Assembly (NCBI RefSeq): GCF_037042905.1
Contig: NC_087251.1
Span: forward strand, 14,324,001-14,388,000
Source of the DNA: Lytechinus pictus
Lineage: Eukaryota
DNA: 64,000 nucleotides
Reading direction: 5' to 3'
The translations under genes and the position numbers were made by a program. The notes under the pieces are model-generated. The model was not told where the DNA came from, did not search any database, and worked only from the letters and a program-made list of their open reading frames with translations. Below are positions 1 to 31,532 of the stretch, piece by piece; within the stretch, counting starts at the first letter, position 1, and each line of letters starts with the position of its first letter.

Positions 1-100
1 CTCATTATCCAATCGGGTCAGAAGGATTCCCCGGTGCGGTTACGAATTAACTTACATGCTCTTGTAAAAACAGCATGAGATATAGTTTTATAAAACTTAC

Positions 101-329
101 ACTAAAGTGTTGTTTGGTGACATTGTATCCAATGTGTCTAGTTGCCAGCTCACGTAGAATAGGTACAAGGATGTCGAGATCGTCTAAGCCATCAACAGCT
201 GTTCCAACTGTCTCCATGACACGTTTACCGTGTGCTTGAGCTTGTGGATCTCTCAGTAACTGTTGGTATGATAGATTCTTGCTCCCGAATGGGAATAGAT
301 GACCTACATCAGGATTATCCGTTACAAGT
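101..329 (-). CDS. Globin domain 10 central exon (gene continues beyond the window)
   Basis: LVTDNPDVGHLFPFGSK...AQAHGKRV...LATRHIGYNVTKQHFS; 229 nt; donor GTAAGT at 100. Confidence 0.95.
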
Positions 330-611
330 CTGTAGGTTTAGAGAGAGGAAAAATCTGTGAATTAAAGGGTAATTTTTCAGATTTGTTGGTCAAGCTGTCT
401 TCAGGGTATATGCTGAAGATGACATGTACTATATTGAAAGAAATCATTTTGTTGAGTATCAGTTGATTAAGATACGCCTATCCTTTCAATCTGTTGTTCT
501 GGGAGTGGAATTGGGAATGGTTTTAAGCAGTTTAGTCCATGTTAACCATGCACTTATGAACGAACAATTCTTTACAAATCCCCACCGACATAGTTGGGTG
601 ATTCCACTTAC

Positions 612-838
612 TTCGCAAACATGACGGCGCCATGTTTTGCTGGGTTCGAAGCAAGACTTCGCCATGTTCTTTTCACAATCTCCTTCTGCGCTGATGTCGG
701 AGGACCAGCACTTGGAAGGATTTCAGACATTGTGTTTGTGATGAGTTGGAAGACGGCCATCCAGGCACCCTGGATATCTGGAGAGAAGGATGAACCTAGT
801 CCTTCTTTAATGGCATGAATCAGGGCTTCACCTACGAG
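612..838 (-). CDS. Junction exon, domain 9/10
   Basis: LVGEALIHAIKEGLG...KRTWRSLASNPAKHGAVMFA(K); 227 nt. Confidence 0.95.
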
Positions 839-1067
839 CTACATGGATTGAAAATAACGAAATTATATCCAAGATCCCTGGTATGAAGAATCTGAACAAT
901 TATAAGAGAGGAACCATACGATTACAAATATATATTACATTAGATATTTTTCCGTCGTCATTCAACGCTCATTATCCAATCGGGTCAGAAGGATTCCCCG
1001 GTGCGGTTAAGAATTAACTTGCATGCTCTTGTAAAAACAGCATGAGATATAGTTTTATAAAACTTAC

Positions 1068-1296
1068 ACTAAAGTGTTGTTTGGCGACATTGTATCCAAT
1101 GTGTCTAGTTGCCAGCTCACGTAGAATAGGTACAAGGATGTCGAGATCGTCTAAACCATCTACAGCCGTTCCAACTGTCTCCATGACACGTTTACCATGT
1201 GCTTGAGCTTGTGGATCTCTCAGTAGCTGCTGATATGAAAGATTCTTGTTTCCAAATGGGAACAAATGACCTACATCAGGATTGTCCGTTATGAGT
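1068..1296 (-). CDS. Globin domain 9 central exon
   Basis: LITDNPDVGHLFPFGNK...AQAHGKRV...LATRHIGYNVAKQHFS; 229 nt. Confidence 0.95.
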
Positions 1297-1527
1297 CTGT
1301 CAAACCAGTCAAAGAATGCAAGATGTTAATCATAGGCCTATCCAGAACTCTTTACATAAAAGTGATTGGCAAAAGAATCTCGTAATTAAGTGACCCCGGA
1401 GGCCCAACCTTTCCCAATGGTATTTCCTTGATTCTCTGTTGACGTTACAAGAAAGATTTGACCTTGTCTTGTCATTCTTAAAGAACCCTCTTTAGCTAGT
1501 TAATTTTGAAGCTCCCATTTAAAAAAC

Positions 1528-3036
1528 ATAGTGTGAGTAAAAAAAAATTGCACCTCACGAATCCCAATTTAAGAGGAAAATATATCTTGAACACATACTT
1601 ATTATACATGGCCTGAAAAAAGTATATTCTCCCAAATAATTTAGTACCATATTTATGTGGTGTATGTGGATGATCAGGAGGTGTTCTTTACAGTGATGTA
1701 AATTTTGATATGTGCCAAAGTAAGGCATGACTGCACTGAATGAATCCAGATCTCAATGATGTCATAATCCTACAAGGGTTGCATTAAAATCCATTGCAAA
1801 ATATCTTTTCAATAATAATGATACCCCCGCCAAACGAAGTTTGAAGGAATATAGGAATCAGTCGGTCCGTTGCAAATCGTGCGCATCGAACTTCTTCCTC
1901 AGTTTTTGACCAATTTTCATGAAACTTGGAACACATATTGGTGTTTGGGTGAAGATGTACAAGACAGACTTTTCGCATATGTCGGAAATTATGTTGCCAT
2001 GGTAACATAATATTTTGGCTAAAATAAGGTTAAAATCCTGCAATTCAAACTAATTCCTCAGTTTTTAACCAATTCTCACGAAATTTTGTACACACATTGG
2101 TATTGATGTGAAGGTGTGCAAGACATATTTTGTGTGTCAGAATTCATGTTGCCATGGTAACGACATATTGTATGACAAAAATTGGGTAATAAACTTTGTC
2201 TTAATTACTTCATCAATTTTCAACCAATCTCATGAAATTCGGCTCACACTTTGGAAACGAGGTAAATGTGTGCGAGACACATCTTTTGTGTGTGTCGGAA
2301 ATCGTATTGCCACGGTAACAATATCATAGGCCCCAGATTAGGTAAAAATCCATTGGTTCGAACTATATGATTAGTTTTCAACCAATTCTGATGAAATTTG
2401 GCTCACACATTGGTCTCGAGGTAAAGATGTTTAGGGCATGTTTTTGCATGTGTCGGAAATCTTGTGCCATGGTAACGATATATAATATGTAAAAAATTAT
2501 CGAAAAATCTTGCGGTTCGAACAACTTCATCAGTATCTACATGTTACCAAATCTCATATTTTGCTAACACATAGTTCTTGGGGTAAAAATGGGAAAGATC
2601 AATATTTTTTCCCCATGTGTTGGAAACTGTTGCCATGATAACGGAGTAGGGCGCGGGTGTTAATCACCTTCAGTGATAGTTCTATTTAACATTAGAATGA
2701 TTTATAATGAACACTTTTTAGATATTAATTCTCAAGTTCATTTTATTTAAAAGGGGTTTGCAAATATGTTCACTAACTCGTGTAGGATTATGACATCATT
2801 GGCATCTGGATTCATTCATTGCAGTCATGCCTATACTTTGGTACAACTCGAACTTTACATCACAGTAAGAAATACATCCTGATTATCGAAGCGTTAACAC
2901 ATACCACCTGAACATGGTATCAAATTATTTGGCAAAAGATACTCTTTCAGGCTATATATAATAATTATTTGTTCATAGAATATTTTTTCCTTGATTGGGG
3001 ATTTGTGAGGTGACAAGTTTGTGTTGACTCACACAA
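1528..3036. mobile_element. Degenerate fold-back / long-TIR non-autonomous DNA transposon (possibly Tc1-like), interrupted by a second element
   Basis: Arms at about 1528-1815 and 2735-3036 are inverted copies; for example 1725-1774 matches the reverse complement of 2781-2831. Ends read tagtgtgagtaa and ttgactcacacaat. Confidence 0.7.
1819..2687 (+). mobile_element. Helentron/HINE (DINE-1-like) non-autonomous element with internal tandem repeats of about 157 bp
   Basis: 5' ATACCCCCGCC, degenerate inverted copy GGGCGCGGGTGT near 2649, 3' hairpin ATCAC-CTTCA-GTGAT; five internal units marked by TGCCATGGTAAC-like motifs. Confidence 0.6.
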
Positions 3037-3081
3037 TTTAAAATAAAAACAAGTGAGGAGTTTTTTTAGCATACAACTTAC

Positions 3082-3308
3082 TTAGCGAACATCACGGAAC
3101 CATGCTGTGCAGGGCTCGGTGCTAGAGTTCGCCATGTTCGTTTCACGAGCTCTTTCTGTGCTGATGTTGGAGGACCAACACTGGGAAGAATTTCAGACAT
3201 TGTGTTTGTGATGAGCTGGAAGACTGCCATCCAGGCACTCAGGATATCTGGAGAGAAGGTTTTACCTAGTCCTTCTTTGATGGCATGAATCAGGGCTGCC
3301 CCTACAGA
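3082..3308 (-). CDS. Junction exon, domain 8/9
   Basis: SVGAALIHAIKEGLG...KRTWRTLAPSPAQHGSVMFA(K); 227 nt. Confidence 0.95.
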
Positions 3309-3654
3309 CTGTTTGAACAAAAAAAAGGTATTAGTATCCAATATTTCTGGTTAGATGAAACTGAACACTTTAAAATACTGTAGTTCGCCTTCATTTCATT
3401 TTGAAATTATTTCCACAGATTCGAAATGTTACAAAACTTTGATATGAGATAAATATGCTGAACAACCTTTAAATAAATTATGATGAATATAAAATGTAAT
3501 TAGCAACCATTCTATACGATCCATGAATGAAGTGCATAACGGAAATTTGGATGAAACCCTAGAAGCAGAACGCTTGTAGACAAGGTCCCCTTGTTATCCA
3601 TTACTTTTTAAAATATTTATTACTACATGTGACTACATTGGGTAAGACTAAATA

Positions 3655-3915
3655 TTCCTTCAGCAAGGAAGTCATCCACAGTGTGCTGCACTCGACCCAG
3701 GTGAGGTAAATGGGTACCGGCAGGAAGTAATTCCTCAAAAAGCTGTGTGCACCTGAATAGGTAGCCTAGCTTAGCCGGGTAATTATAATAGCAGGGCTCA
3801 CTGGGAGAACAGTTTTCGGAACTGAAGTGGCTACCCTGGGTAAATATACCGTTATTATTATTAGTTCATTATTATTATTATTATTATCATAATTATTATT
3901 ATTATTATTATTTAT
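3655..3915 (+). mobile_element. 5'-truncated SINE with (ATT)n tail
   Basis: Core CTCGACCCAGGTGAGGTAAATGGGTACC shared with the copies at 21.2 kb and 6.5-6.9 kb. Confidence 0.75.
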
Positions 3916-4090
3916 TAGATATGTATTACAATTCTAGATTTCGAAATCACCATCTGTCACAACACACCGTTTAATGTGCTTTATCCAATCTGATTAGAGG
4001 AATTCTCCGAATTTTGGTTTAAAATGTACTTTGGGGATATCTAGAAATAGTGTAAGATGAGGTCCTCAATCATGGCCTTTATATACTAAC

Positions 4091-4319
4091 GCTAAAGTGT
4101 TGTTTGGTGACATTGTAGCCGATATGTCTAGTTGCTAGCTCACGTAGAATTGGTACAAGGATGTCGAAATCGTCTAAACCATCAACAGCCGTTCCAACTG
4201 TCTCCATGACACGTTTACCATGTGCTAGAGTTTGTGGATCCCTCAGCAGCTCTTGATATGAAAGATTTTTGCTGCCGAATGGGAACAGATGACCTACATC
4301 AGGATTGTCCGTTACAAGT
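4091..4319 (-). CDS. Globin domain 8 central exon
   Basis: LVTDNPDVGHLFPFGSK...TLAHGKRV...LATRHIGYNVTKQHFS; 229 nt. Confidence 0.95.
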
Positions 4320-4569
4320 CTGTAGAAAAATAGAGATAAATTGACGATTGCAGATCAAGTACTTCTACATGTAAATGCTGAACAGGACGTTAGCAATAAT
4401 AAGCTGAATTGATATAGTTTTCGTATAAAAGATTTTTCATTATTTTTCCTCGGATTACTTAATTTGGAGGTGTTTAGGCAGGTTGGGTTAAAGAAGACCA
4501 TTATAATGAGTATATCTTTGAAGACGGTATCATGCATCAACAGAGATGTGTGAGTGTGACTCAACTTAC

Positions 4570-4796
4570 TTGGCAAACATCACGGCGCCATGCCTTGCTA
4601 GATTTGGAGCGAGTTTTCGCCATGTTCGTTTCACAATCTCCTTTTGCGCTGATGTCGGGGGTGCAATGTCTGGGAGGATTTCAGACATCGTGTTTGTAAT
4701 GAGGTCGAAGGTAGCGACCCAGGCACTCTGAATACTTGGAGAGAAGGATGAACCTAGTCCTTCTTTGATGGCATGAATCAGGGCTGCTCCTACACA
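4570..4796 (-). CDS. Junction exon, domain 7/8
   Basis: CVGAALIHAIKEGLG...KRTWRKLAPNLARHGAVMFA(K); 227 nt. Confidence 0.95.
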
Positions 4797-4984
4797 CTGG
4801 TTGAAATAAGCAACAGCGTGAGCAAATTATTAATTCACCATAATATACCGTCAATTATTATTCAGCATGTTACAATATCAGCGCGAATTATTGTAATGTT
4901 TCAAGAACTATTGGTATCTGGATTTTAAAAAATATGAGCGGTTAGAAATGTTTTCTTGTAAATGTAATTTGGTTACCATTGTAC

Positions 4985-5213
4985 CTTGAAGTGTTGCTTT
5001 GTGACTTTGTAGCCAATATGTCTCGTCGCCAATTCTTTCAAAATGGGAACAAGGAGATTCAGATCGTCCAAGCCTGCTACAGCCGTTCCAACTGTCTCCA
5101 TAACACGTTTACCGTGTGATTGAGCTTGTGGATTCCTCAGTAGCTGCTGATATGAAAGATTCTTGTTTCCGAATGGGAATAGATGACCTACATCAGGATT
5201 GTCCGTTACAAGT
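4985..5213 (-). CDS. Globin domain 7 central exon
   Basis: LVTDNPDVGHLFPFGNK...AQSHGKRV...LATRHIGYKVTKQHFK; 229 nt. Confidence 0.95.
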
Positions 5214-6490
5214 CTGTAATTTATAAGATAATCCGTTATGAGTACGAATTAGGCAGAATAAAACCTGGTATTAGCCTATTTGAATTTTAGATTGACGTGC
5301 CAAAAAGACCGTTGCTATAAATCTTGGAGTTCTGAGTTTATATGTAATATTTACGAAAAGGAAATGTATATGATGAAGTGAGGCAAATCTCAATGTACAC
5401 TCCTATTTTTTTTCCAAATAAGTTTTAAGCATGACGATACTACTTTTGTGACATGGACTCATATGGTATACAAAAAATACTCATGGAATTATTTGGAAAA
5501 AAATATTCAAGGTTTTTAGAACGTATTTTGCCCAATTCAAAGTGCAAAGTATATAGCAAACCGTCTGAAGTTATAGACTATTTAAGAATGGAGTTCCGTG
5601 TATGCACTAATATCCACATGTGATTGGCCAGAAGTTTGGGTGTCCGGCTATAGCTGTGCACACGAGAAGCAGTAGTTTAGTAAAAGTAGACGTTATTGAA
5701 TAACATTTGGTCTGTCACTAATTTCAATTTACATAGAGCCATAGTGGAATGAAATTCGTTTAGCGATTAATTGCATTCCACAATATGTTCCTTTTCCGAA
5801 AAACCCTGTCTATCATGACTTTTGTATACCATTTTCCTTATTTTGCTTACATTTGGGAGACATTTCTATAGTTGCACTGACTATTATGATTTTCGATCAC
5901 ATAAGTCGTGATAATAACAACATAATTCAATAGATGTTATGGTAACTTATTAGAACACACAATGGTCATAATCTTCCTTATATATAGTTGATTCTGTCTG
6001 TAAGCGGATCCGCAATTTAACACAATGTCTAACATCCTAAAAATACACTGATGGGTAAATAGACTTCAGAGTAGACCAATATTTTCAGATTTTCCATAAA
6101 GACTGGAAATTATCTTACTGGGCGATCGTTCATTAAACCTTTGTTGACCATACAAAGGCAATATCATGTAGACCTTCGTCCTCTAAATTTGAATAATGCC
6201 ATATAGGCTCAAGGTTGATGTCTTTACTTTTATATTTTACATTATATTCTTACATTTTCCAAAGTAAATTTGTCTATATTGAAGCGTAAATGCTTACTCC
6301 TTATGTATCAGCAATTACTATTCTAAAAATTAAATTCAATACTTTAGCCTTTTGATTTATAGCACTGTTAAACAAAAGAATATTCAATTCATTGCCAACG
6401 TGTAATCGTAATAATGCCAACGTACAGGAGTATATTCATGTAAGATAGCAAAATAGACTTGTTAACTCATTTCATTAACATATTTCATCC

Positions 6491-6494
<4 letters not shown>

Positions 6495-6522
<28 letters not shown>

Positions 6523-6862
6523 GCTTTTATATAGCGCTTAATACATCGGGACGACGTGTCTAAGCGCTTTAAAAATAATTATATTATAACCCCGGTCATC
6601 GGATTCAATCAGTTATTCCCGCACACAATGTGTGCAAATCCTCCACTCCCTGGGGAGTATTCCAGTCAGTCGCCGGTGAGGCGCACACAGTACTGGACAA
6701 ACTACAATGACTTTTACATCCTACCGGGTACCCATTTAGCACCTGGGTCGAGAGTGGCAAAGTGTGGAATGGTCTTGCCGAAGAACGCCAGACCGAGGTG
6801 GGATTCGAACACACGACTCCCTGTTTACAAGGCGAGAGTCAGAACCACTACACCACGGCTCC
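6495..6862 (-). mobile_element. tRNA-derived SINE, full length
   Basis: Minus strand: A box TGGTGTAGTGG, B box GTTCGAATCC, core CTCGACCCAGGTGCTAAATGGGTACC, (ATT)n tail. Confidence 0.8.
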
Positions 6863-7030
6863 TCCTATCTATTTCAAACCGTAATTGTATTAGTTCCTTT
6901 TTCAACGATTTTCATTAGACCGTTTTATTTTATTTCGATCTCGATAAACGGTATATAAAATTGCTATACAATATCCATGAGCTTTCTTTTTTGTCTTTTC
7001 TTTTCTGTTCTCATGTTCCTCTCCCTATGA

Positions 7031-7067
<37 letters not shown>

Positions 7068-7076
7068 CCTCTCTCT
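7031..7076. repeat. (CT)n microsatellite
   Basis: Directly visible. Confidence 0.9.
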
Positions 7077-7455
7077 TTTATTTGGTCCCCATGAAAGACC
7101 AGCTGTACATAATTGTAATTGGTGCAGCTAAATATGGGTTATCCAACCGTATTTTGTCTTAAGTACATGGTCTTTTGTCATTTATCTTTAAACTTCCTTA
7201 GCATGTTTAAAGCAATAATGTTTTTTATCAACGTTTAGAATTTATTTCATTATGTAGGTATATGTTACTCTTTGAGTCTCTTTACATGTATATATTGTTG
7301 TGTATTTTTATGAAGGAAATGAAGAACAAAACAACAATCAATTAAATTTACATGTATATTCGGCAAGATTTGTGTTTAATTCAAAGTATTTTTGCATTTG
7401 CATGGATACAGAGCGTGATATAGAAAGCTTCTTTTTGCTGAAAATGGACACTTAC

Positions 7456-7694
7456 TTTGCAAACATGACGGCTCCGTGTTTAGTGTGGTTCGTGGCAAGT
7501 TTCTTCCAAGTGGTTTGGACCAGTTTTCTTTGTTCGCGTGTCAGGGGTCCTTGTTCATCCTCAGAATCGGGAAGTATTTCAGACATGATGTTTGCAACAA
7601 GAGTGAATACGGCCATCCAGGCACCTTTAGTCTCACTGTCAAATGCATTTCCTAACCCCTTCTCTATTGCGTAGAACAGTGCTTTACCAACAGC
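7456..7694 (-). CDS. Junction exon, domain 6/7
   Basis: AVGKALFYAIEKGLG...ILPDSEDEQGPLTREQRKLVQTTW...HGAVMFA(K); 239 nt, the longest linker. Confidence 0.95.
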
Positions 7695-7964
7695 CTGTTA
7701 ACAGACAAAAATGAAAATAAGTTGGCGACACGTTTTACTGCAAGCCACTTTGTTTATGTAATTTCAAGATGTTTAACATGTTTAATTTCAACATTCCGTC
7801 TATTCCGCACAGATTACATTAGGCTGTAAAACTATCACGTTTTAGAAAAATGTAACCAGAGAACATCTTCAGAATCTATTATAATAGTTCTAATCATGCA
7901 CAGTGAGTGATCTTGTATGCGCATCACCAATGAAATTGAAGCAAGTCAGTAACAGCACACAAAC

Positions 7965-8193
7965 CTCCAAGTGTTTCTTGTTCACATTGTACTCGATGTG
8001 TCTCTTTGCGAGGTCTTGGAGAATTGGTACAAGGAGATCCAGGTTGTTCAAGCCATCTACTACATGCCCGATGGTTTGCATCACCTTCTTACCATGTGCT
8101 TTGACTGAGTCGTCCCAGAGCAACTGGTGGTAGGTCATACCCCGATCTCCAAACGGGAAGAGACGACCTACTTCAGGGTGATCTGTGACCAGT
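7965..8193 (-). CDS. Globin domain 6 central exon
   Basis: LVTDHPEVGRLFPFGDRGMTYHQLLWDDSVKAHGKKV...LAKRHIEYNVNKKHLE; 229 nt. Confidence 0.95.
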
Positions 8194-8371
8194 CTAGAAA
8201 TAATAATAATATTAATAATGATGATGACGATGATGATGATGATGTTAACAATACAACAACTAACTGCTGAGATTTTACAGCGAAAAAAAATATTATTAGA
8301 AAATCAAACCTTTAACTCAGTCATAACAATCACCATAGAATTGTCACTAAGACGTTCTAACTCTCACGAAC

Positions 8372-8607
8372 CTTGCGAACATGACGGCGCCGTGTCTTCC
8401 CGGATCTTTTCCGAGCGTCTTCCACGTTCTCTGCACAATTTCTTTTTGGTTGCTTGTTATCATGCCATCATCAGGGGCACCGACGAGCTGCTCTGATATG
8501 GTTTCTTCAATGAGCTGCCAGAAGATGAGCCAAGCATTCTTGGTGTTGTCGTTGAAGGAATTCCCAAGTGTTTCCTTGAGAGTGTTCATCAAAGCGGTTC
8601 CTATTGG
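8372..8607 (-). CDS. Junction exon, domain 5/6
   Basis: PIGTALMNTLKETLG...QRTWKTLGKDPGRHGAVMFA(R); 236 nt. Confidence 0.95.
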
Positions 8608-8880
8608 CTGTGATAGTAAACAATTATGGAAGTGGAAATAAACGTGTCTTGCCGGTGTAAATAGTCAAATGATTTATATTTTCACACCCAATATCATCTT
8701 CCGTTCATTGTAAAACTACAAAGCCTAGATAACATTTAACATATCCTCTTTATATTTTAGTAATATTTAGGGTCTGATATGAATACACATTTTGAAAAAA
8801 ACACAAAGAGAGGCAGTGTTGCAAAAGTTACAAATACTGTAGGAAATTCACAAATAAAAAGTTGGTTGTTGGGAACTTAC

Positions 8881-9109
8881 AGCAAAATCGCTTTTAGTCA
8901 CTCCATATGAGACGTGCCTTTTCCCAAGTTCACTGAGAACCGGAAGTAGTTTGTCAGGGTTATCTAACACTCGGATGGCATCACCTATTGTCTGCATAAC
9001 CAGAAGACCTTGTGCCTTGAGCTTGTCGTCCATGAGAAGACTCTGGTATGACTGGTTCCGACCACCAAACGGGAAGAGCCTTCCTATATTTGGATGATCA
9101 GTAACTAAC
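8881..9109 (-). CDS. Globin domain 5 central exon (E7 Gln)
   Basis: LVTDHPNIGRLFPFGGRNQSYQSLLMDDKLKAQGLLV...LGKRHVSYGVTKSDFA; 229 nt. Confidence 0.95.
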
Positions 9110-11525: not shown

Positions 11526-11749
11526 TTTGCAAACAGGATGGCGCCACACTTGGCTTTCTCCGGTGCCACTATCCTCCAGGAACCTTTGATGAGGTTCTTC
11601 TGTTCGGTGGTCAATCCACCTGCTGGTAGCAATGGTGCCATGGTCTCAGCTATAACTGAGAAGACAATTGACCATGCAGCCTCCAGCTCCGATGTGAACC
11701 TGCTTCCCAGACCCACGCGTAGTGCATGTATCAGAGACTCACCTACAGG
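11526..11749 (-). CDS. Junction exon, domain 4/5
   Basis: PVGESLIHALRVGLG...KGSWRIVAPEKAKCGAILFA(K); 224 nt; donor GTGAGT. Confidence 0.95.
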
Positions 11750-13212
11750 CTGATGAAGGTAGGTGAAGGAAAATCCAGTTGAAATCAATGAGAACTACCC
11801 AAACTTTATTTTCTTCAAATTGAAAAACAACCCTAAAATATCCCAAGTTAAATCTAGTAGAATGCGCTACCAAGAAGCTGTAACACGGGTATGAAACGTT
11901 CAATTCATATGTCTGGATTATATAAATATATAACGTAATTGTGCCTAGATAGTACTGCCATTCACACTTCAACACCAGATCCGTTTGGTCACTAACCTTG
12001 ATATATGCGCGGACATAACAGACAGGAGATCGAATGTCGAAAGTTCAATGCATTGAACAATATTTTGTATTATGAATTAAAAGAATGCGAAGAAATAAGT
12101 ACCTTGTCTAAAATTCATCGATCACAACACCATTGTATTGTAAAGATCTATATTCTTTCTCCGGTTTGTTGTTGAATGATAACAAATATTATTGTTTCAT
12201 TGTCAAGAGTTTGTGTTTTCATCCCTAATACGCACTGAATTCCCAGCGTGGGCGTTGTTGACAAACAATACTGGAACTATGATCGTCCAATAAGAAAAGA
12301 GCTTCAGTGAATTATCAGAAAGAATTCTCCGAAGTTGTATGACGCACATACAAGTATTTTTTAACTGAATGTCACCACAATATCTTTGAAGGAAGTATGT
12401 CTTATCAGAGGTGAATTAGGAAAAATATTGAGGGTGCTGAGCTAAATTGAATTAAATCATGAACAATAACCACTTTTCAAGCTAAATACCACATGGTTTT
12501 CAAGTAATTAAAGTCAAATCGACCACATATTCAATTCAATTGGGTGAAAATTGTGATGGTAAAGAAAATGCAAGGCAATGATTTAAGTACTATGTAACTT
12601 TCCTGTGGTAACAGGGGTAGGATACGGGGAGAGGCGGGGGGGGGGGGGGGAGCGGTGGCTCAAGTAACGATAACCCTATACCTGCATGGCAGTATACCAT
12701 TATTATTGTCTACGATCGAATTAAATGCGTTCGTTTATAACGCGAATTGTGACCCAGACATGCTTCATGAATATCAACTTTTCACCGGTAGCCATTTCTT
12801 GACATTATTCTTCTCGAGGCCATCTCTGCTAAATTGAGAAATCAATCATAATCTGAGATATATTGTATATTGCTAGTTTTCATAATAAAGTAGTAAGAAT
12901 TTCCTTATACTTGTTCATGAATTTGACGTTGTTCGAAGGGCATAAATTTCCTATTTCCGATTGTTTAAATATTTTAGAGAGCGTATTGGATGATTGATGT
13001 AGCGGAAATTTTCCTTGAGAAAAAAAGTTTTAAAATAATTTGGTACAAGGCAATGAAATATGGAAATTTTCATTAAGCAGAGGAAAAATTATATGCAAGG
13101 GAGTATACAGTTGTACGTTTCCCTTTTTTTTCATAAACTCAAAATATTGTTAAACAATTGAAGAAAGAACACAAGAATTAATTGAGAAGTTAAAGAAACA
13201 AAATTGTCATAC

Positions 13213-13441
13213 CTTGAAATGTTGTTTGGTCACATTGTATCCTACGTGACGCTTGGCGAGATCTTGCAGTATCGGGATTAACAATTCCAAGTCGTCCAAT
13301 CCAGATACTGCCACTCCTACGGTATCCATTATACGTTTACCGTGGGCCCTGAGATCCTTGTTGGCGAGTAGCTGATCATAGCTAAGGTTCATGCTCCCGA
13401 AGGGAAATAGTTTGCCCACATTTGGGTTGTCTGTAATCAAT
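13213..13441 (-). CDS. Globin domain 4 central exon
   Basis: LITDNPNVGKLFPFGS...LRAHGKRI...LAKRHVGYNVTKQHFK; 229 nt. Confidence 0.95.
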
Positions 13442-13836
13442 CTGAAAAAAAAACCACAATGGCAACAACGTTATAGTGTTTTTGAGGTGTACAAAAATAT
13501 ATTTCCTCTGCCGACAACGAATACAATTATAGCAGTTTAAGCTTTTTAAATTTGTATTTTTATTTCTATGTATCATCCCTTTCTTGGTTTTATTGATCTC
13601 TCGAATTTTAAGTGAACCAACAACGGGATGGGAAGTGAAAGCCTTCCATGTTTGGCGTATAGTTATAAATGAAAAGACATGAAAAAGGAGCAACCTAATA
13701 ATTCTTCCTCAGAGAACTTAAAAAAGATAGAACAAAACTAATTGACAGATAAATAATCCCAGCGATCATCAGTCTACTTTTGTTTTGAAGAACAGTAAAT
13801 GTCTACAGCCATTTTCAGTATGTAGATGTCTCTTAC

Positions 13837-14063
13837 TTGGCAAAGAGTACCGATCCGTGTCTTGTAGGATCTTGACCGATTGTCTTCCAAGACGTCTGCA
13901 CGAGGCTTTTCTGTGTTGCAGTGATGGGTCCATCAGGGACTACTTCAGCCATAGTGTCGGTTACAACCTTGAATAATTCGGCCCATGCATTGCGGACATC
14001 TGAGGTAAATGACGACGGGCCGACGCCAAGTCTTACCGCGTGTAGAAATGCATCTCCAGTTGG
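13837..14063 (-). CDS. Junction exon, domain 3/4
   Basis: PTGDAFLHAVRLGVG...QTSWKTIGQDPTRHGSVLFA(K); 227 nt. Confidence 0.95.
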
Positions 14064-14364
14064 CTGAATAATAAGAGGGGGTATCATATAATCTTACCAG
14101 TGAACAACAAAATGAGATAAAACGTATTTTTATGGAGCAAAATAAGAAAGATGATCATTGGAGGGTAACTGATATTCTCAACTCCTTTATATGGAGGAAA
14201 TACCCCTTCCCCCACTTAATAAATAAGAATGATGAAACCGTAAGATCATCACAACGAAAAAGCGTTGAAAGGAAAACTTGTCCCGTCCTTCGCTCATCTG
14301 TTCATGTTTTCAAATCATTCAAATCTTTATTCATTTACAGTAAAAGAGATTGGATGTCACTTAC

Positions 14365-14593
14365 CGCGAAGTAACGCTTCTGGACATTGTATCCAATGTG
14401 TCTCTGCGCCAGGTCTCTGAGGGTTGGGAGAAGCAGGTCTAAATCATCAAGGCCATTGACTGCATGACCAACAGTTTCGAAGACGCGTCTTCCATGTGCT
14501 TTGACGTCCTGATTTTGTAGCAGCTGCTCATAAGTCAACCCTTTCCCGCCAAACGAAAAGACTTTGCCAACCTCAGGATAAGAAGTTGCTAAT
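14365..14593 (-). CDS. Globin domain 3 central exon
   Basis: LATSYPEVGKVFSFGG...VKAHGRRV...LAQRHIGYNVQKRYFA; 229 nt. Confidence 0.95.
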
Positions 14594-14870
14594 CTATTCG
14601 GAAGATGCATTGACGTCAATGAATAAGATGTCATCATTATCAAATGGGAATAGCTTTTTGCTGAAGAATAAGTTTTGCATCAAGACATGGAGGGAAAGAC
14701 AACGCCCCCTCCCCCCCCCCCCATGACAAGACGATAAAAAAATCAACAAATGTATTATTTACTGATATAATGATTATCCGTAACCTTTAAAATTGAACAA
14801 TTATCTTCTGGACCAGGTATGAAAAACATGAAATTAAAATGAAAAAAGTTTAAAAGGAAATTATCCTTAC

Positions 14871-15103
14871 TTGGCAAACATAACCGACCCATGTCTCTCT
14901 GGATCCCTGGACAACTTCTTCCATGACTCCTGTATCAGGCGCTTTTGTGTCGGGGAAACGATCTCCTTTGAGCCCTCCGGAAGCATGTCGGACATTGTAT
15001 CAACTACGAGTTGGAACACGGCCAGCCATGCCCCTTTCACTTCTTCGCTGAAAGACCTACCAAGTCCCTCACGGATGGCATGCATTAATGCTTCACCGAC
15101 TGG
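14871..15103 (-). CDS. Junction exon, domain 2/3
   Basis: PVGEALMHAIREGLG...QESWKKLSRDPERHGSVMFA(K); 233 nt. Confidence 0.95.
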
Positions 15104-15365
15104 CTAAACGGGTGCAATTAGTGAAATTAAGTTGATTGGTTTGGAAATAAAATTATCATGACGAAAGAAGGAAACGATTTCATTCTAAATTTTACTTCTA
15201 ATTTACTAAATGAAATTTTAGATAAATGCCCACATGCAGATAAATGACCCTCTGTCATCACTTAAACTGTAGACTACTTCAAATTCTCTTTCGTACTATC
15301 TAAAACTACTTTGTCATCATTAAAAAAAACGTTTGTCATTAATATTTAGAATCTAATACTCTTAC

Positions 15366-15591
15366 CTGGAAATGCTGTCTGGTGACACTGTACCCGATGT
15401 GTCTTCTGGCCAAATCACGAAGAATGGGCACCAGGATGTCAAGATCATCGAGGGCCCCGACTGCCTGGCCGATGGTCTCCATCACCTTCCTCCCATGAGC
15501 TCTCAGAGTCTGGTTCTCAACGAGCTGACTGTAGGAAAGATTCTCACCGAACGGAAACAGGTGAGCAACTACTGGGTGAACAGATATGAGT
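15366..15591 (-). CDS. Globin domain 2 central exon
   Basis: LISVHPVVAHLFPFGENLSYSQLVENQTLRAHGRKV...LARRHIGYSVTRQHFQ; 226 nt, one codon shorter than the other central exons. Confidence 0.95.
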
Positions 15592-15848
15592 CTGAAATAT
15601 ACAACATAAATGCAAATAGACCAATCGTTAAGATGTAGTATTACTTTTAACTTTTTGGGTGGACACTACTGCTTCTCCAGACAGGGTCATCATAATAATA
15701 GTCGTTCTGTTCAATTTCTTAATTTCGGTAGACTTAGATCTTCAACATGTTTGCAGGTTTATCTTAACGAGTTTTCACATTTTATGGCTTCTTGGTGACC
15801 TTAATTATTACTATAATTTCGTGGGTTCTTAAGAATATTAATAGGGTA

Positions 15849-16131
15849 CACTGTTTTAAAAAATGCGATTTTACAGAAAGAAAAAAGAAGATTCTGCAGA
15901 AAGCAATAACAGAATCATTCTGTAAATTCATAAAACAGGAATTTTTCTGCAATTTAACAGAACAGGTCTGTTCAAAAAGGGGAAAAGGGTGTTTTATTTA
16001 AGGAAATTTGTCAGATTCCATACACCAAATACCAATTTCCTGTAGTTTACGCAATCTGGTAAGATTACAGGTGTTCTCGAGACTCTGCTGCAGGAACTTC
16101 TTTTATTTTAAGGATAAATTTTCTAACAGTG
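15849..16131. mobile_element. MITE with CACTG termini and TA flanks (CACTA/EnSpm-like)
   Basis: TA|CACTGTT...AACAGTG|TA. Confidence 0.6.
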
Positions 16132-16207
16132 TAGATTACTTGGAAGCAAATCGGTATACTTCCCGATATATAAATCCTAGTCTCTTCTTGAAGCTATTTT
16201 GACGTAC

Positions 16208-16431
16208 TTTGCGAACATGGCTGCTCCGTGTTGCTCCATGTCTAGAGATAGCACTCCCCAGGTCTTCCTTACAATATCCTGTTCTCTGGTCGTAAGCGGT
16301 CCATCGGAAAGCTTCGTTGACATCGTATCAGCCACGATGTTGAAGACGGCGGTCCATGCTGCTTTCACATCAGATGTGAAACCTGCTCCTATGGCCTGTT
16401 CTAGGGTGAATAGAAGAGCTTCACCAACCGC
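16208..16431 (-). CDS. Junction exon: domain 1 G7-H, linker, domain 2 A-B12
   Basis: AVGEALLF...KAAWTAVFNIVADTMSTKLSDGPLTTREQDIVRKTW...HGAAMFA(K); 224 nt. Confidence 0.95.
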
Positions 16432-16674
16432 CTAAATAATTGTTTTAAGAGAGAGAATTAGAGGCTTTTTATATTTGGTTAATTCTTGCGGAAACTTCCT
16501 AAATGCAAAAATAAAACGTAACTTGATCGGACTTTATAAACTGGGTCATGTCGACCTATGCAGAGGACTATTTCAAAACTTTCCAATTGCTTTATCTCTC
16601 TGACATATTATAACTGGTCTAGCACAATTTGCAACTACATTCATGTATAGATCTGAATCTGTGGATTCACTAAC

Positions 16675-16903
16675 CTTGATATGTGTCTTCTTAGCATTGT
16701 AAGAATTATGCCTCTGGCCGAGGTCTTCGAGTATTTGGACGACGAGTTCCATGTCGTCAAGGTCTTCGACCACCGATCCTAATGTATCAATGACCCTCAT
16801 ACCATGAGCTCTGACATCGGGATCAACAAGGAGTTCTCCATACGACAGATTCTTTCCACCGAAAGAAAACAACTTTCCAATATCCGGGTGATCGGACGTC
16901 AAT
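16675..16903 (-). CDS. Globin domain 1 central exon (B12.2-G7.0)
   Basis: LTSDHPDIGKLFSFGG...VRAHGMRV...LGQRHNSYNAKKTHIK; 229 nt, AG/GT flanks. Confidence 0.95.
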
Positions 16904-17828
16904 CTATGAAACATTTTTAAAACGAAGGCAATTCGAGGCAAAATATATATATAAAGATAATTGTTCAAGGCTAAAATAATAAAACGGTTTGGTAAGGCCT
17001 GTATTACTTTTCCCAAGGTCTCCGAGATAGTTTGCGAATCCATATAATCTGAGGAGTCAAGCTCAAGCCTTTTTCTTTTTCATTTCTAACGTATATGGTT
17101 TTATATATTATATTGTATGATTTGTCCGCTTATGTCCATCTTGATTGTTTTATTAACTTGAAACAAAAAAACTAAAATGAGAATGAAATAAACAAATCTA
17201 GAAATATTTAATTATTTCGGACCAATTTTCTACATTTTTGGATGCCTTCCAAATAGCGAATGGGCGCCATTAAAGTTCATGGAGTAGTTTGTAGAACTGT
17301 AAATATCCGATCAGATGATGTAAATTTAAAAACTTGCAATTATTGTTAACGGGTTCCAATTTGAATAAGTTAGTCGGTTTATAACAATTTCATTAGACAT
17401 TCATATAAATGCCAGCTGTAGAAAAGAATGTGCGTATGGTTGTGTAAAATTGTGTTTAACAAGAACCCACCCCGTTTAATCAAAGTGTCAATTAAAAATT
17501 CCTCGTCGCCCATTTTTTCGAGAATGAAATATGTCAAGGAACGCACAAAACTACCCTCATGATTTTGATATTTCAGCCAGGATTCTGTGTCAAAAAAGAA
17601 CTAAATTTATGACCCACAAGAAGGAACAACAACAATATCAAGTTTCGTTCGTCTATCTCAGTGATAATGTTTACTTCCTCTTTGAAGAAAACCAGATACG
17701 ATATTATCGAGATTTGTCGTGATTTACCATGGATAAACATTCCCTGGGTATTATTACATATACATACTGCACATACTGTGTAGAAATTATCCTCATACAT
17801 TTCGTTGAAAAATTGTGCCATACAAACT

Positions 17829-18470
17829 TCTTTTTTTTTCTTTTAATTTCTATTGATCATTTACAAATATATTCAAGAATCAAGACAAAAATTACGATGT
17901 ATTTACACCATTTACACAAAGCAGCATTAAACATTTTGAAGAGAGAGAGAGAGAAAACAAGGGTATTTTAAACATGGGTATGAAATATTCTAAATTCTTA
18001 TCACAATTTAGTAAAGTCAAGAAACCTTCGGATACAGGTGAAGTATAGTATTTCAACAAAAGAAGGATATGTTAGAAAAATTTATCTTCCTGCATACCAA
18101 ATATTTTCTGAAAAACTGAGGGTTGAATTTCTTTTTTATCTTTTGTGTTAATTATCCTAATAACATCATTCTAAGTGGGCAAGACTTTGTTATATACATA
18201 GATTATAATAAGCGTTTCGGGGTCTTTGTTACAAAAGGAGCAAAGAGGAGAATCAGTTCTTTTAATTTTGAAGAAGAAGTCATCGAAGTTGATTGTCCTA
18301 TGAAAAATTTTGAAATAAAACTCCCGCAGACGAGGATTTATTGTACATTTGAAGTTGGTCAAACGAGTTTTCTCCCAATTTGTATCAGGTAATACACAAA
18401 AATACTTCAAAATGGAAATCTATTTTTACGGGATGCATTTATCCAAGAAAATAGAACAAGAATAATTAGT
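17829..18470 (-). mobile_element. Decayed L1/Tx1-type LINE 3' fragment
   Basis: Translation CTINPRLREFYFKIFHRTI...KIKRTDSPLCSFCNKDPETL resembles the zf-RVT C-terminal zinc-binding region of ORF2; A-rich tail on the minus strand near 17829. Confidence 0.7.
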
Positions 18471-20349
18471 AACTATTTCATATTGTTATAATTGCTTAAA
18501 AATTTCTTCATAAATATCAATAACAATAAGTTCAAACTATCCAACTAAAGAGAAGGGATAATCTTTAGCCAAAATATATATATTTTTTCTTTTTCTTTCA
18601 TTGACCCGAATACCAAAATCGAAAACAAGCTCTTCAAAAAATGTTAGAACCAGGGCGCGGAGGATTTAGAAGATATTTTACGAAAACAAATCTGCCCCTC
18701 ATTATGTTCCTCTCTATATCACGAGCCATGTCCTTCATTGTGTAATATATCACGCAAAATATAATCGTGAATAGTGGTTGAAAATGGATAAATGAATCAA
18801 AGTGCATTCGGTCCATTCCATCACTGAGTCTTGGCCATTACCGCCTCCTTAATTGCGTGAAACACGATTACCACCTCGCATATCAAGAGAATTACCGCAA
18901 CATCGATTTTGAAGGTCGCAAGACCATGGAATTGTCGTGGAGTTCTGATGATATAATCCAATAGACTTAATACTCCCGGCACTCTACAATTACAGGTCAA
19001 GTCGACGCTTTTTAACAATGTCTTTTGGTCATTATTGCCATATTTCAAGGTAGACATGCACAATCATTTTAATTTCGTATGTTTTCAGTTTATCTATTTT
19101 ATTATTTTTGTAAAGATGTATTGTTGGTATTTCGAAAAAGCGGAATTCTACAACTTGCTTCTTCGTGTGTGTAGTGATTCTGACTTTCTTCTTTGATGAC
19201 TTCTTTTTAATGGTTTTTTTCTCCTTTCTTGTTTGTTTTAAGATTTCGGAAGAGGAGGAACCACCCGTCTCAAATGGGGGAAAGGTTATATTTGAAAATT
19301 TAAATGAAGCTTTGCTTTCATGAGTACAAAATTTGATTATTATGGGTATACATTTAGAATTGCCCCTTTTAATTCCATGGTCATTCCTTTCACTGAGCAT
19401 GATTATTTTTAGTGCGTTTTTCCCTTATTCAGGCATCTATTCCACTTCAGTTCACTCAGCTCATTGTCAATGTAAGACGAATATCTCTCTTCCTTTTGAC
19501 TGAGTTTCGATTCAATCGAAGATGAATATATTTTTACTACAAATAATGAAGAATAATGTGTGGCCGTCGGAAAATAAATATTGATTATAATCATTTTTAA
19601 GTTATTTAGTCTAATAATGGTATTCATAATCTAACAATAAATGTTTAATCATGTGATCGTATGAACTCTACTGACATTTCCTGTTGCTTATATTGGCGAT
19701 TTAGGATCGTCAAACTAAGTTGCGTTTCAACTAGAAATTAAATATAATGAATATAAAAGAATTGGACTTGCAATTCTAATAAGATACATTAAATCATTCT
19801 TTCAACTGAAACACATCGTGTAAAAATTACGCGGTACTTCGTTGAAAATAAAGAGTATCTTTCATTTTGTTCAGTGTTACAAAGAGCGGAGAAGAAGTGT
19901 AAATCAAGAAGGAACTTCGATTTCGCAAAAGCAGGCATGGGTCCAGGGACACATGCCTCCTACCACCCAAATCTTTACAAAAAATAGTTTGTGATATATG
20001 TTATGCCTTTGATAAATGAAGAGACCATTCTTTCTTTCTTTCGATAGAAAAGTTTTTTTTAATGGCAAGCTTTTTTAGTTTATCTTTTTTTATCTTTTGG
20101 AATATGGAGTGATGATCCTTTTTTCTTTAATATTGTTTGTGCCCCTCTCAATTCTTAATCCTAGATCTGGTCAACTGAAATAAATTCCTACTTAGTTAGT
20201 CAGAAAGAATACGACTCAATAAATCTTCTTTTTTTTACTCTATTTGCTGTTCATTTCTCTTGTTATTCATGTCGAAACGAAAATATATTACATTGTATAC
20301 CATTATTATTACTTGAGATGCAGATATTCAAATGGGTTTTATGGTGCTG

Positions 20350-20515
20350 AATGGTGCAGTCACATTGTCCCTACGACGGCCGTATGGCGAGTCGAAAACA
20401 GCAATTTTATTCATATTTATTCGAACCTCCTACATGTATCTGGTACAATAAATGTTAAAACGGCTTGTTTTGACTCGCCGAATGGCCGCCGTAGGTGAAA
20501 TGTGACTGCGCCATT
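20350..20515. mobile_element. Small MITE with long inverted arms (Harbinger-like)
   Basis: AATGGTGCAGTCACATT...CTACGACGGCC versus GGCCGCCGTAG...AATGTGACTGCGCCATT; a related short element lies at about 48944-49052. Confidence 0.6.
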
Positions 20516-20705
20516 AGCTATAAAATTCATCGTAAAAAGAGATCAACGCAATGCTCAGATCATTGTCCATTCTCCTAGAAACTTAAATTGGGTTCTTAAT
20601 ATACAGATATATATATATATATTTATTTAACTATGTGGTTCACTTATTTTTTCTATAGTCATGATAAGATTGGTTCACTGTTTCACTGATTTTTTAGCAC
20701 CACTC

Positions 20706-20739
20706 TGTGTATGTGTGTGTGAGGGTGTGTGAGTGCGTG

Positions 20740-20780
<41 letters not shown>

Positions 20781-20783
20781 GAG
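20706..20783. repeat. Compound (GT)n(AT)n(AG)n microsatellite next to the exon 2 donor
   Basis: Directly visible. Confidence 0.9.
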
Positions 20784-20807
20784 GGGGTCCTTTCCATAAT
20801 AACTTAC

Positions 20808-21022
20808 TTAGCAAACATCATGGAACCATGTAGTTCTGCCTTCTTTTCCAGTGTCTTCCATGTATTCCTCACCAGGGTCTTTTGTCTCTCATCCAGGCTA
20901 GATGTGATTGGTTCATGAATCAAGGAGGTGCTAGAACCCTGGAATCCAAGGTTCTCCAACCCCCTATCATCCTCCATTCCAACCACCGCTGGTCGAGAAG
21001 AGCTGTTCAGGAGGGGCATTTT
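20808..21022 (-). CDS. Coding exon 2: linker plus helices A-B12 of globin domain 1
   Basis: KMPLLNS...LDERQKTLVRNTWKTLEKKAELHGSMMFA(K); acceptor TTCTTTAG, phase-2 donor GTAAGT; 215 nt. Confidence 0.92.
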
Positions 21023-21171
21023 CTAAAGAACAAAAGGTTAAAACTTATTGATAAAGCCGGTGAGTCCGTTCTACATGTATATTCCATGATATAGAAAAGA
21101 AGTAGAGACTAAATAAACTCACATCAATGCTAAACTTCACTGTTTTAATATTCCATGTTAACGATACTCGT

Positions 21172-21446
21172 GGAGCAGTGTGGCCCAGTGGATTAGTCTC
21201 CGGACCTTAAAACAGAGGGACTCGAATCCTAGCCATGGCTTGATTGCCTTTGTCAAGAAATTGATCCACAATATGTTGCACTCAACACAGGTGAGGTAAA
21301 TGGGTACCGGCATGAAGTCATTCCTCACAAAGCTGTGAGCTCCGGAATCCGTAGCCTAACTTAGCCGGGGTAATATAAAAGCATCTAGAGCACCTAAGAG
21401 GTTGGATATATGCGCTATACAATTACCCTATATTCTCATTATTATT
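21172..21446 (+). mobile_element. tRNA-derived SINE
   Basis: A box TGGCCCAGTGG, B box GACTCGAATCC, same core as the 3655 copy, short ATT tail. Confidence 0.8.
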
Positions 21447-24095: not shown

Positions 24096-24232
24096 TTAAT
24101 AACTGGTGCCTAATAGTGACGCAAATCAACTGAAATTGATATATACCTACTGTTTTCCGAAATATTGTGAAATCTTAATATCATTAACCCATGAGGGAAA
24201 TCATATTCAACGAGGATATGTTATTACATCAA

Positions 24233-31217: not shown

Positions 31218-31532
31218 CCCTGATGAATCTGGAGGGTACCAATTATTCTCTGTCTGGATACCAATTGTTGATACTGGAGTTGGTTGCTTAATTCCGTCAA
31301 AGGCATCCACGCCCACGGATGGACCTAATCCAGGAGCAGCTAGGTTATTATTCTCCACCACTAGCCCATCACTACGTTTCTCATCTGATGCACCTCCTCG
31401 AAACTTAACCTCGTCCGGTGAGGGAGCGAATGATGCGGATGATGTTCCATTCACATCAGGAGGAACTGGTATTTGCTGATGGAGGGATTGATGCGATCCG
31501 TTGCGCACGGGCTTAGAATGACAGCAGCCCAT
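31218..31532 (-). CDS. Coding exon 1: MGCCHSK... N-terminal acylation signal plus low-complexity linker (105 aa); exon probably extends to 31680 as 5'UTR
   Basis: ATG in good context (AACATGG). Phase-0 donor GGG|GTATGT at 31217 matches the phase-0 acceptor at 21023. Strong acceptor TTTTCTTTTATCTTTCAG at 31681. Confidence 0.75.

Follow-up and report, generated by a model that had tools for sequence, protein, structure and literature searches.

Lytechinus pictus LOC129264905 encodes a chain of 18 globin domains (~317 kDa predicted from the RefSeq proteins) whose N-terminal extension is predicted to bear a double lipid anchor and an LC8-binding motif. Sequence comparison makes the gene orthologous to the 16-domain neuroglobin-like globin published from Strongylocentrotus, and its polymeric architecture is therefore already known; the predicted anchor and LC8 site extend that description. 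The stretch of DNA analyzed here (the window, 64,000 nucleotides) contains 21 exons of the gene, all on the minus strand and all with GT-AG introns, which join into 1,627 codons without a stop. They encode nine complete globin domains and a tenth that is cut at its G7.0 intron by the left edge of the window (Table 1); domains 11-18 were taken from the RefSeq proteins and not from window DNA. An earlier note on this DNA had described at least ten domains in one reading frame between 101 and 21022. The joined frame is indeed stop-free, but only after splicing, and the window holds nine domains and part of a tenth, with the RefSeq model continuing past the left edge to 18. The interval also omits the first coding exon (31680-31218), which lies 10.2 kb upstream. 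The orthology proposed in that note stands, but its reading was incomplete, having overlooked the N-terminal exon with its predicted lipid anchor and LC8-type motif.

Table 1. Exons and predicted N-terminal motifs of LOC129264905 in the window
Feature	Position	Strand	Details or evidence
E1, first coding exon	31218..31680	-	148 nt 5' UTR, ATG at 31532, low-complexity extension of 105 codons, donor in phase 0
MGCCHSK, predicted N-myristoylation (Gly2) and S-palmitoylation (Cys3, Cys4)	31512..31532	-	motif match
TIGIQTE, residues 89-95, predicted LC8/DYNLL-binding motif	31248..31268	-	conservation, complex model
B0, extension end and domain 1 helices A-B	20808..21022	-	splice sites; unlisted 215-nt contig stretch
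A1, domain 1 core	16675..16903	-	splice sites, Pfam, spliced contigs
B1, domain 1 G-H, linker, domain 2 A-B	16208..16431	-	splice sites, spliced contigs
A2, domain 2 core	15366..15591	-	splice sites, Pfam, spliced contigs
B2, domains 2/3	14871..15103	-	splice sites, spliced contigs
A3, domain 3 core	14365..14593	-	splice sites, Pfam, spliced contigs
B3, domains 3/4	13837..14063	-	splice sites, spliced contigs
A4, domain 4 core	13213..13441	-	splice sites, Pfam, spliced contigs
B4, domains 4/5	11526..11749	-	splice sites; RefSeq model match 100%
A5, domain 5 core, distal E7 Gln, not His	8881..9109	-	splice sites, Pfam, heme-site alignment
B5, domains 5/6	8372..8607	-	splice sites, RefSeq model
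A6, domain 6 core	7965..8193	-	splice sites, Pfam
B6, domains 6/7	7456..7694	-	splice sites, RefSeq model
A7, domain 7 core	4985..5213	-	splice sites, Pfam
B7, domains 7/8	4570..4796	-	splice sites, RefSeq model
A8, domain 8 core, homogenised central block begins	4091..4319	-	splice sites, Pfam, domain comparison
B8, domains 8/9	3082..3308	-	splice sites, RefSeq model
A9, domain 9 core	1068..1296	-	splice sites, Pfam
B9, domains 9/10	612..838	-	splice sites, RefSeq model
A10, domain 10 core, gene continues past left edge	101..329	-	splice sites, Pfam

The 20 exons between 101 and 21022 alternate between two types. A type B exon (215-239 nt) covers the end of one domain (helices G-H), a linker and the start of the next (helices A-B), while type A exons (226-229 nt) run from B12 to G6. 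Each has an AG acceptor and a GT donor (20/20), intron phases alternate between 2 and 0, and throughout the window exons the introns fall only at B12.2 and G7.0. Helix H passes through a short linker into the next helix A without a stop, as had been described; the sequence then quoted, TMSEILPSAGPPTSAQKE, is found in exon 838-612, the motif HGAVMFAKL in domains 7, 8 and 10, and FS|xVG in domains 8 and 9. The Pfam Globin model, proposed earlier as a check, matched all 10 type A exons (E 7e-12 to 5e-9), 2 of the 10 type B exons weakly, and 18 stretches of the whole protein.

The 16-domain S. purpuratus protein mentioned in the earlier note is in print (PMC4527676 and PMC3485006, excerpts). Its gene, LOC763287 (XP_001199205), is colinear with the L. 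pictus gene from residue 1, with 80.6% identity over 1,637 aligned residues of the window model, an MGCC start, an IGIQTE motif and introns at B12.2 and G7.0 only (S2 Table of PMC4527676, excerpt); it differs in having 16 domains rather than 18, and domain 5 of L. pictus has Gln at E7. In the literature searched, neither LOC763287 by name nor neuroglobin in Lytechinus returned a match. Four urchin species have colinear models of 16-18 domains with position-wise orthology in the domain tree, with repeated gains of domains (16 to 17 to 18); starfish polyglobins have 3-7 domains. Domains 1-7 and the last six form one-to-one pairs between Lytechinus and S. purpuratus, and the 18 domains of Lytechinus, versus 16, come from a longer, near-identical central block. 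Both domain trees were quick, with SH-aLRT support only and the root not tested. Within the window, positions 1-333 are 94% identical to 968-1300, including ~100 nt of intron, and units 9 and 10 share 94-95% DNA identity.

Exon E1 has in-frame stops upstream of its ATG, with A at -3 and G at +4, and contributes to an extension of 145 residues ahead of domain 1. Four sequencing runs were examined, two as contigs (X1 and X5) and two as raw reads (X16 and X19). One spliced contig from each of X1 and X5, representing two species, contains E1 and exons A1-A4 in order, with 1 differing letter in 2,061 listed and 58 in 1,912, respectively. These contigs are only presumed to be RNA; they lack the introns exactly, and the run search listed none on record as RNA. 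Exon B0 is not among the listed contig pieces, but between E1 and A1 both contigs have an unlisted stretch of exactly 215 nt, the length of B0. In the contigs each junction is seen, but no single molecule spans the whole gene. No exon junctions were among the joints listed for the X16 and X19 reads, which reach about 1-fold depth or less in repeat-free exon bins. E1 is present in RefSeq XP_054758842.1 and absent from the current XP_054758842.2, which begins at an internal Met of exon B0. Word-index searches with E1 and with exon A1 reached only proteins of up to 2,000 residues; they were blank and hence uninformative. Two annotations are corrected: the current L. pictus model lacks E1, and the published 14 + 2 division of the S. 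purpuratus gene, with an N-terminus termed "unknown" (PMC4527676, excerpt), is not upheld; the current model is again one 16-domain protein.

The LOC129264905 protein starts MGCCHSK, which fits the PROSITE myristoylation pattern. Myristoylation of Gly2 and palmitoylation of Cys3 and Cys4 are predicted from this sequence with good confidence. With one longest model counted per species, an MGC start is found in five of six echinoderm polyglobins (L. pictus, L. variegatus, S. purpuratus, Diadema antillarum and Asterias amurensis), the exception being the Patiria model, and it is also present in a crinoid single-domain relative. Left out of this count and of the six-species motif count below are the L. 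pictus model without E1, a model of D. setosum whose start lies inside helix B, earlier partial models of S. purpuratus, shorter isoforms and four other Patiria models. Among these, the E1-less and partial models all lack an MGC start. The absence of a signal peptide had been noted without the true N terminus in view, and it still holds: by hydropathy, residues 1-35 contain no hydrophobic stretch (maximum 11-residue Kyte-Doolittle mean -0.07). Both zebrafish globin X (PMC3176823, excerpt) and C. elegans GLB-12 (PMC4686822, excerpt) require a dual acylation motif for their membrane location. Two protist proteins with an MGC start carry 7 or 3 globins joined to a cytochrome b5 domain, an analogy that was counted for the heme-buffer function proposed below.

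The LC8 site is suggested by conservation and by a complex model. A TIGIQTE-type IQT motif is kept in all six echinoderm polyglobin extensions, with flanks that can barely be aligned between urchin and starfish, and is absent from the crinoid single-domain relative. TIGIQTE has the Gln-centred anchor, small residue at -2 and Asp/Glu/Pro at +2 that characterize LC8 clients (PMC6607443), and by composition the extension around it appears disordered. As the motif pattern was drawn up after the sequences had been viewed, the shuffle rates of 13-85 of 20,000 understate chance. A model of the extension with a stand-in LC8 scored 0.85, compared with 0.08 for the best of three controls. Peptides lie outside the calibration of the tool, in which 51 of 78 solved complexes passed the mark, as did 2 of 108 mismatched pairs. 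Contacts agree to 75% or more among three runs, with pLDDT of 60-66 for the partner, and place residues 85-94 against LC8 residues 59-70 and 34-40. The score may reflect memory of solved LC8-peptide complexes. Similar core motifs occur in the LC8 clients GKAP (LSIGIQVD; PMC12797016, excerpt), nNOS (DTGIQVD) and yeast Pac11 (predicted TYDKGIQTD; PMC3145545, excerpt), whereas the polyglobin has a single predicted site in its low-complexity extension. Three IQT peptides failed to bind LC8, and only 7 of 19 predicted LC8 peptides bound (PMC6607443). We lean towards LC8 binding at TIGIQTE, which would hold two chains side by side, with up to 36 hemes per pair.

The literature searched, which did not include Blank and Burmester 2012, contained no report of an anchor or LC8 site in the polyglobin, and no title in a search on globin with LC8 or dynein light chain reports a globin client of LC8; a lipid-anchored polymeric globin was likewise not found. 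The available part of PMC3485006 makes no mention of acylation, myristoyl or palmitoyl, and the polymeric gene was left out of a bilaterian acylation survey (PMC7771090, excerpt). Blank and Burmester 2012 may have scored the polyglobin, as an older 2,552-residue model already began MGCC.

The likeness to neuroglobin that had been noted from motifs is borne out by both sequence and fold. In a solved-structure search with the whole protein, neuroglobin led with 76 bits (E 5.6e-21), against 46 for cytoglobin, and a bacterial single-domain globin scored nearly as high (73); with type A exons alone, neuroglobin was not in the best 60. Neuroglobin was also the best single-domain match by fold (TM 0.83 on target). 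The S. purpuratus orthologue has been placed with neuroglobins, a grouping that is unsupported in the main tree of PMC3485006 (excerpt). Across 77 domains of six echinoderms, the Phe B10, His E7 and His F8 of neuroglobin are found in 77, 75 and 77 domains, and Phe CD1 in 74. Human neuroglobin has a CD-loop redox switch. This switch is absent here because no domain has a Cys between CD1 and E7 (0/77). Vertebrate neuroglobin further differs in being a single cytoplasmic domain (PMC3176823, excerpt), against 18 domains and a predicted lipid anchor, and in its extra E11.0 intron (PMC3485006, excerpt), which the type A exons lack. As to adjacency to POMT2, a mark of the neuroglobin lineage, no POMT2 domain was found in 140 of the 543 open frames beyond 31.7 kb, or by motif; the other flank lies outside the window.

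The predicted double lipid anchor and LC8 site suggest that the chain is likely to reside on the inner membrane face rather than to act as a free oxygen carrier. We propose, at about even odds, that the 18-domain chain, with its predicted anchor and LC8 pairing, is a cytoplasmic-face heme buffer for oxygen, nitric oxide and peroxide. Myristate and palmitate on the 145-residue extension would tether the chain to the cytoplasmic face of the membrane, and LC8 at TIGIQTE would pair two chains to give up to 36 hemes. Somewhat less securely, we infer that every domain carries a heme whose iron shuttles between Fe(II) and Fe(III), re-reduced by a cellular partner such as cytochrome b5. NO and peroxides would be broken down beside membrane lipids, and a small local O2 reserve would be kept. 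Concatenation would give each anchor more hemes in a setting where copy number is capped by membrane area rather than by cell volume. More tentative again is the suggestion that such a brush, anchored in the membrane, dimerised by LC8 and bearing up to 36 hemes, was built twice on the same acylated LC8-binding handle, in urchins (16-18 domains) and in starfish (3-7), its length adjusted as exact 152-residue units are duplicated and perhaps skipped.

The anchored chain could instead be mainly a local oxygen store in cells of nerve, muscle or tube feet, comparable to the nerve haemoglobins of invertebrates, with concatenation packing more O2-binding hemes under the membrane. The nearly complete conservation of His E7 and His F8 and the repeated gain of domains in urchins would fit selection for capacity, and further multi-domain globins, from molluscs, crustaceans and annelids, have been described as haemoglobins (PMC4503718, excerpt). 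We consider this unlikely, as a membrane-tethered protein is area-limited and does not diffuse, a respiratory role of globin X was argued to be highly unlikely from its membrane association (PMC3176823, excerpt), and the known multi-domain haemoglobins are mostly extracellular (PMC4503718, excerpt) while the polyglobin has no signal peptide. Less likely still is a signalling source that passes electrons to O2 to make superoxide at chosen membrane sites, with LC8 placing it in a scaffold. GLB-12 is dually acylated, makes superoxide and needs its membrane anchor (PMC4686822, excerpt), and the motif class is common to the scaffold GKAP and to nNOS. However, a few hemes suffice for a signal, leaving 16-18 domains unexplained, and an ordered electron path finds no support in a three-domain model in which the domains are confident (pLDDT 85) but their arrangement is not set (pTM 0.45). 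This model drew on an alignment of nine rows, one poorly aligned at 14%, and its missing inter-domain geometry neither supports nor excludes flexibility.

A soluble cytosolic polyglobin as the main product is improbable, whether its transcript lacks E1 and starts at the internal Met of B0 or the anchor motif goes unused. The start of XP_054758842.2, the Patiria model and the X1 contig, which starts at the E1 acceptor, would agree with this, but E1 is in a listed spliced contig of each of two species, all L. variegatus RefSeq models (3/3) and current S. purpuratus isoforms (5/5) start MGCC, and the motif is conserved amid diverging flanks. An E1-less, unanchored isoform may nonetheless exist, given the Patiria model without MGC and the current L. 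pictus model without E1. The idea that the array is an assembly artefact or several independent single-domain genes in a row, which the near-identity of units 9 and 10 and the earlier 14 + 2 annotation might have suggested, is largely refuted by type B exons that each span two domains without an intervening stop, spliced contigs that continue through four domains and beyond, colinear models in four urchin species and the single 16-domain S. purpuratus model.

Among known globins, the polyglobin resembles globin X and GLB-12 in its N-terminal extension with Gly2 and a nearby Cys and in its predicted location. Unlike the polyglobin, both are single-domain, and the E10.2 and H10.0 introns of globin X (PMC3485006, excerpt) are absent from the L. 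pictus gene. The polyglobin is not a globin X member, though globin X-like in predicted location. Head-to-tail domains in one chain are shared with the haemoglobins of Artemia (9 domains), Daphnia, Branchipolynoe, planorbid snails and astartid and carditid clams, in which domain numbers are comparable or larger; these are mostly extracellular, the Barbatia di-domain form being intracellular (PMC4503718, excerpt), whereas the L. pictus chain has a predicted anchor and no secretion signal.

The polymeric gene has so far been treated as a soluble curiosity (PMC4527676, excerpt). The anchor and LC8 predictions both rest on two short motifs in one exon. If both are real, the chain would be a membrane-bound heme array, neither a blood pigment nor a cytosolic neuroglobin, and this would bear on the ancestral role of neuroglobin and on the idea of a membrane origin of globins.

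The globin domains of LOC129264905, a minus-strand gene that runs past the left edge of the window (GC content 36%, animal DNA), are carried by two alternating exon types. Each type A exon lies between the B12.2 and G7.0 introns and contains a heme-site core, and each type B exon encodes the G-H helices of one domain, a short linker and the A-B helices of the domain that follows. Because type B exons span two domains, the joining of domains is encoded within single exons. All 20 exons have AG and GT ends with phases 2 and 0 in turn, and the spliced frame is stop-free, bearing out the single reading frame proposed in the earlier note; the Pfam Globin check it suggested matched all ten type A exons. 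Its figure of at least ten domains holds as to concatenation, with nine complete domains of 151-156 residues each in the window and a tenth truncated at the left edge.

The gene interval in that note is incomplete, as it misses the first coding exon, E1, whose donor is compatible with the phase-0 acceptor of exon B0 across a separation of 10.2 kb. Four public runs, two of contigs (X1 and X5) and two of raw reads, were aligned to positions 11701-31700. The contig runs, which carry two species labels and come from two studies, provided one contig each in which E1, a 215-nt unlisted stretch and exons A1-A4 follow one another intron-free; this stretch is exactly the length of B0, and both contigs continue for more than 1,100 letters past A4. 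Mismatches to the window amounted to 1 of 2,061 listed letters in X1 and 58 of 1,912 in X5, and this contig support is junction by junction rather than from one molecule across the gene. Exon coverage was barely present in both raw-read runs. Reads from all four runs pile very deep, fitting only partly, on high-copy intronic repeats. Inclusion of E1 brings the coding capacity of the window to 1,627 residues. Of 543 open frames at 31700-64000, the 140 with the highest GC content gave no Pfam match above cut-off.

Features of the gene and the surrounding window
Feature	Position	Strand	Details
Central block undergoing homogenisation	1-5300		1-333 and 968-1300 are 94% identical, intron flank included
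Alternating exon series	101-21022	-	20 exons
Short repeat family	1874-2444		three copies
Exon A5	8881-9109	-	domain 5
High-copy interspersed repeats in introns	15703-16369, 21039-21705, 23040-24373, 25041-26374
Exon B0	20808-21022	-
Open frame	31029-31577	-	includes MGCCHSK
Exon E1	31680-31218	-	ATG at 31532; in-frame stops 5' of ATG; phase-0 donor
Upstream open frame	31650-31667		six codons; 5' UTR of E1; same frame as main ATG
Weak RING-like match	56436-56576		E 0.0085
GC-rich stretch	60800-61100

A profile built from the ten type A exons returned an S. purpuratus protein as top match, and a search with that protein retrieved full-length models. The window model is identical to L. pictus XP_054758842.2 over 1,507 residues, and shows 96.4% identity to L. 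variegatus and 80.6% to S. purpuratus, in agreement with the suspected orthology to the 16-domain S. purpuratus protein, which was already published, grouped with neuroglobins and showing POMT2 synteny (PMC4527676, PMC3485006). A 2015 split of the S. purpuratus gene into 14 and 2 domains is rejected, as the current model is a single 2,595-residue protein. Domain counts are 18 in L. pictus, 17 in L. variegatus, 16 each in S. purpuratus and Diadema antillarum, 7 in Patiria and 3 in Asterias. S. purpuratus and L. variegatus RefSeq isoforms are shorter by exactly 152 or 304 residues, equal to one or two whole units, with zero mismatch; either splicing that skips domains or mis-mapping between near-identical exons may account for this.

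Of 77 domains compared, all have His F8 and Phe B10, 75 have His E7 and 74 have Phe CD1. Domain 5, the most divergent in the window (36-51% to other domains), has Gln E7 and Leu E10 in both Lytechinus species, with His kept in S. purpuratus and Diadema, and its ligand binding may differ. Among solved structures, neuroglobins matched best by sequence (76 bits; a bacterial globin 73, cytoglobin 46), consistent with the neuroglobin-like character first assigned to the domains. A predicted model of domains 2-4 (pLDDT 85, pTM 0.45) indicates that they fold confidently, their mutual arrangement not being predicted; neuroglobins were its best single-domain fold matches, ranking after engineered di-alpha haemoglobins, whose match is one of length.

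In a quick tree, end domains pair by position between urchins, and a central block of varying domain number shows homogenisation genus by genus: domains 8-12 of L. pictus group with 8-11 of L. variegatus, and domains 8-10 of S. purpuratus and 6-9 of Diadema form groups of their own. Starfish domains cluster with the crinoid acylated-type single-domain globin (97), away from all urchin domains (94), in a second quick tree of untested root, which suggests separate amplifications of urchin and starfish polyglobins. At least four polyglobin loci occur in Patiria among the matches listed, and further polyglobins have 14 near-identical, 7 and 9 globin domains.

Ser, Gly and Pro are abundant in the 145-residue N-terminal extension formed by E1 and the start of B0. 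No hydrophobic signal was found in it, so the earlier observation that a signal peptide is missing extends to the true N-terminus. Taking one longest model per species, five of six echinoderm polyglobins start with MGC, the Patiria model being the exception, and a crinoid single-domain relative likewise does so. The N-terminus shares the dual acylation motif of globin X and GLB-12, needed for the membrane location of each (PMC3176823, PMC4686822), and dual acylation and membrane location of the chain are predicted with good confidence. KMPLLN and NLGFQGSSxSL in B0, kept in 4/4 urchin extensions between poorly conserved flanks, are perhaps sorting or adaptor signals.

The motif [TD]I[GA]IQT[ED] occurs in all six polyglobin extensions and is absent from the crinoid protein. 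It resembles the LC8 sites of GKAP and nNOS (PMC12797016) and the predicted site of Pac11 (PMC3145545). Two copies of residues 72-105, modeled together with an LC8 dimer that served as a stand-in (Pfam Dynein_light), scored 0.85, against 0.08 for the best of three controls. The runs agreed to at least 75%, partner pLDDT was 60-66, and the interface lay at residues 85-94 and 98-101. The mark applied was passed by 51/78 solved complexes and 2/108 mismatched pairs, a calibration that covers no peptides, and the pass may reflect memory of solved LC8-peptide complexes. Three IQT peptides did not bind LC8 (PMC6607443). On balance, LC8 binding and pairing at this motif are moderately likely.

The putatively acylated extension would hold the chain at the membrane, LC8 would pair chains, and concatenation would increase the hemes per anchor. 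We tentatively favor, at a little under even chances, a dense membrane heme buffer that would remove NO and peroxides and store little O2. A local O2 store, to which the many hemes would also lend themselves, is unlikely. A superoxide source like GLB-12, with which the acylation motif is shared, is less likely still. A soluble form lacking E1 would fit the current L. pictus model, which begins at an internal Met; the earlier version includes E1 (2,888 residues, about 317 kDa), and we consider such a form improbable. Separate genes or an artefact are very improbable given the stop-free frame. With regard to the anchored heme buffer, MGC-starting proteins that end in a cytochrome b5 domain occur in the diplonemid protists Sulcionema specki (7 globin domains) and Namystynia karyoxenos (3). 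These are likely convergent anchored polyglobins with their own electron carrier, and by analogy anchored globin chains could be coupled to such a carrier.

In the portions of the literature consulted, the N-terminus of the S. purpuratus polyglobin is termed unknown (PMC4527676), acylation terms do not occur (PMC3485006), echinoderm serial globins are omitted (PMC7771090), and no description of the anchor or LC8 motif was found; Blank and Burmester 2012, outside that search, may have scored the protein. The gene belongs to a known polymeric-globin architecture, and its anchor and LC8 motif are common to the known S. purpuratus protein; what is new is a directly testable reading of the location and binding partner of this protein.
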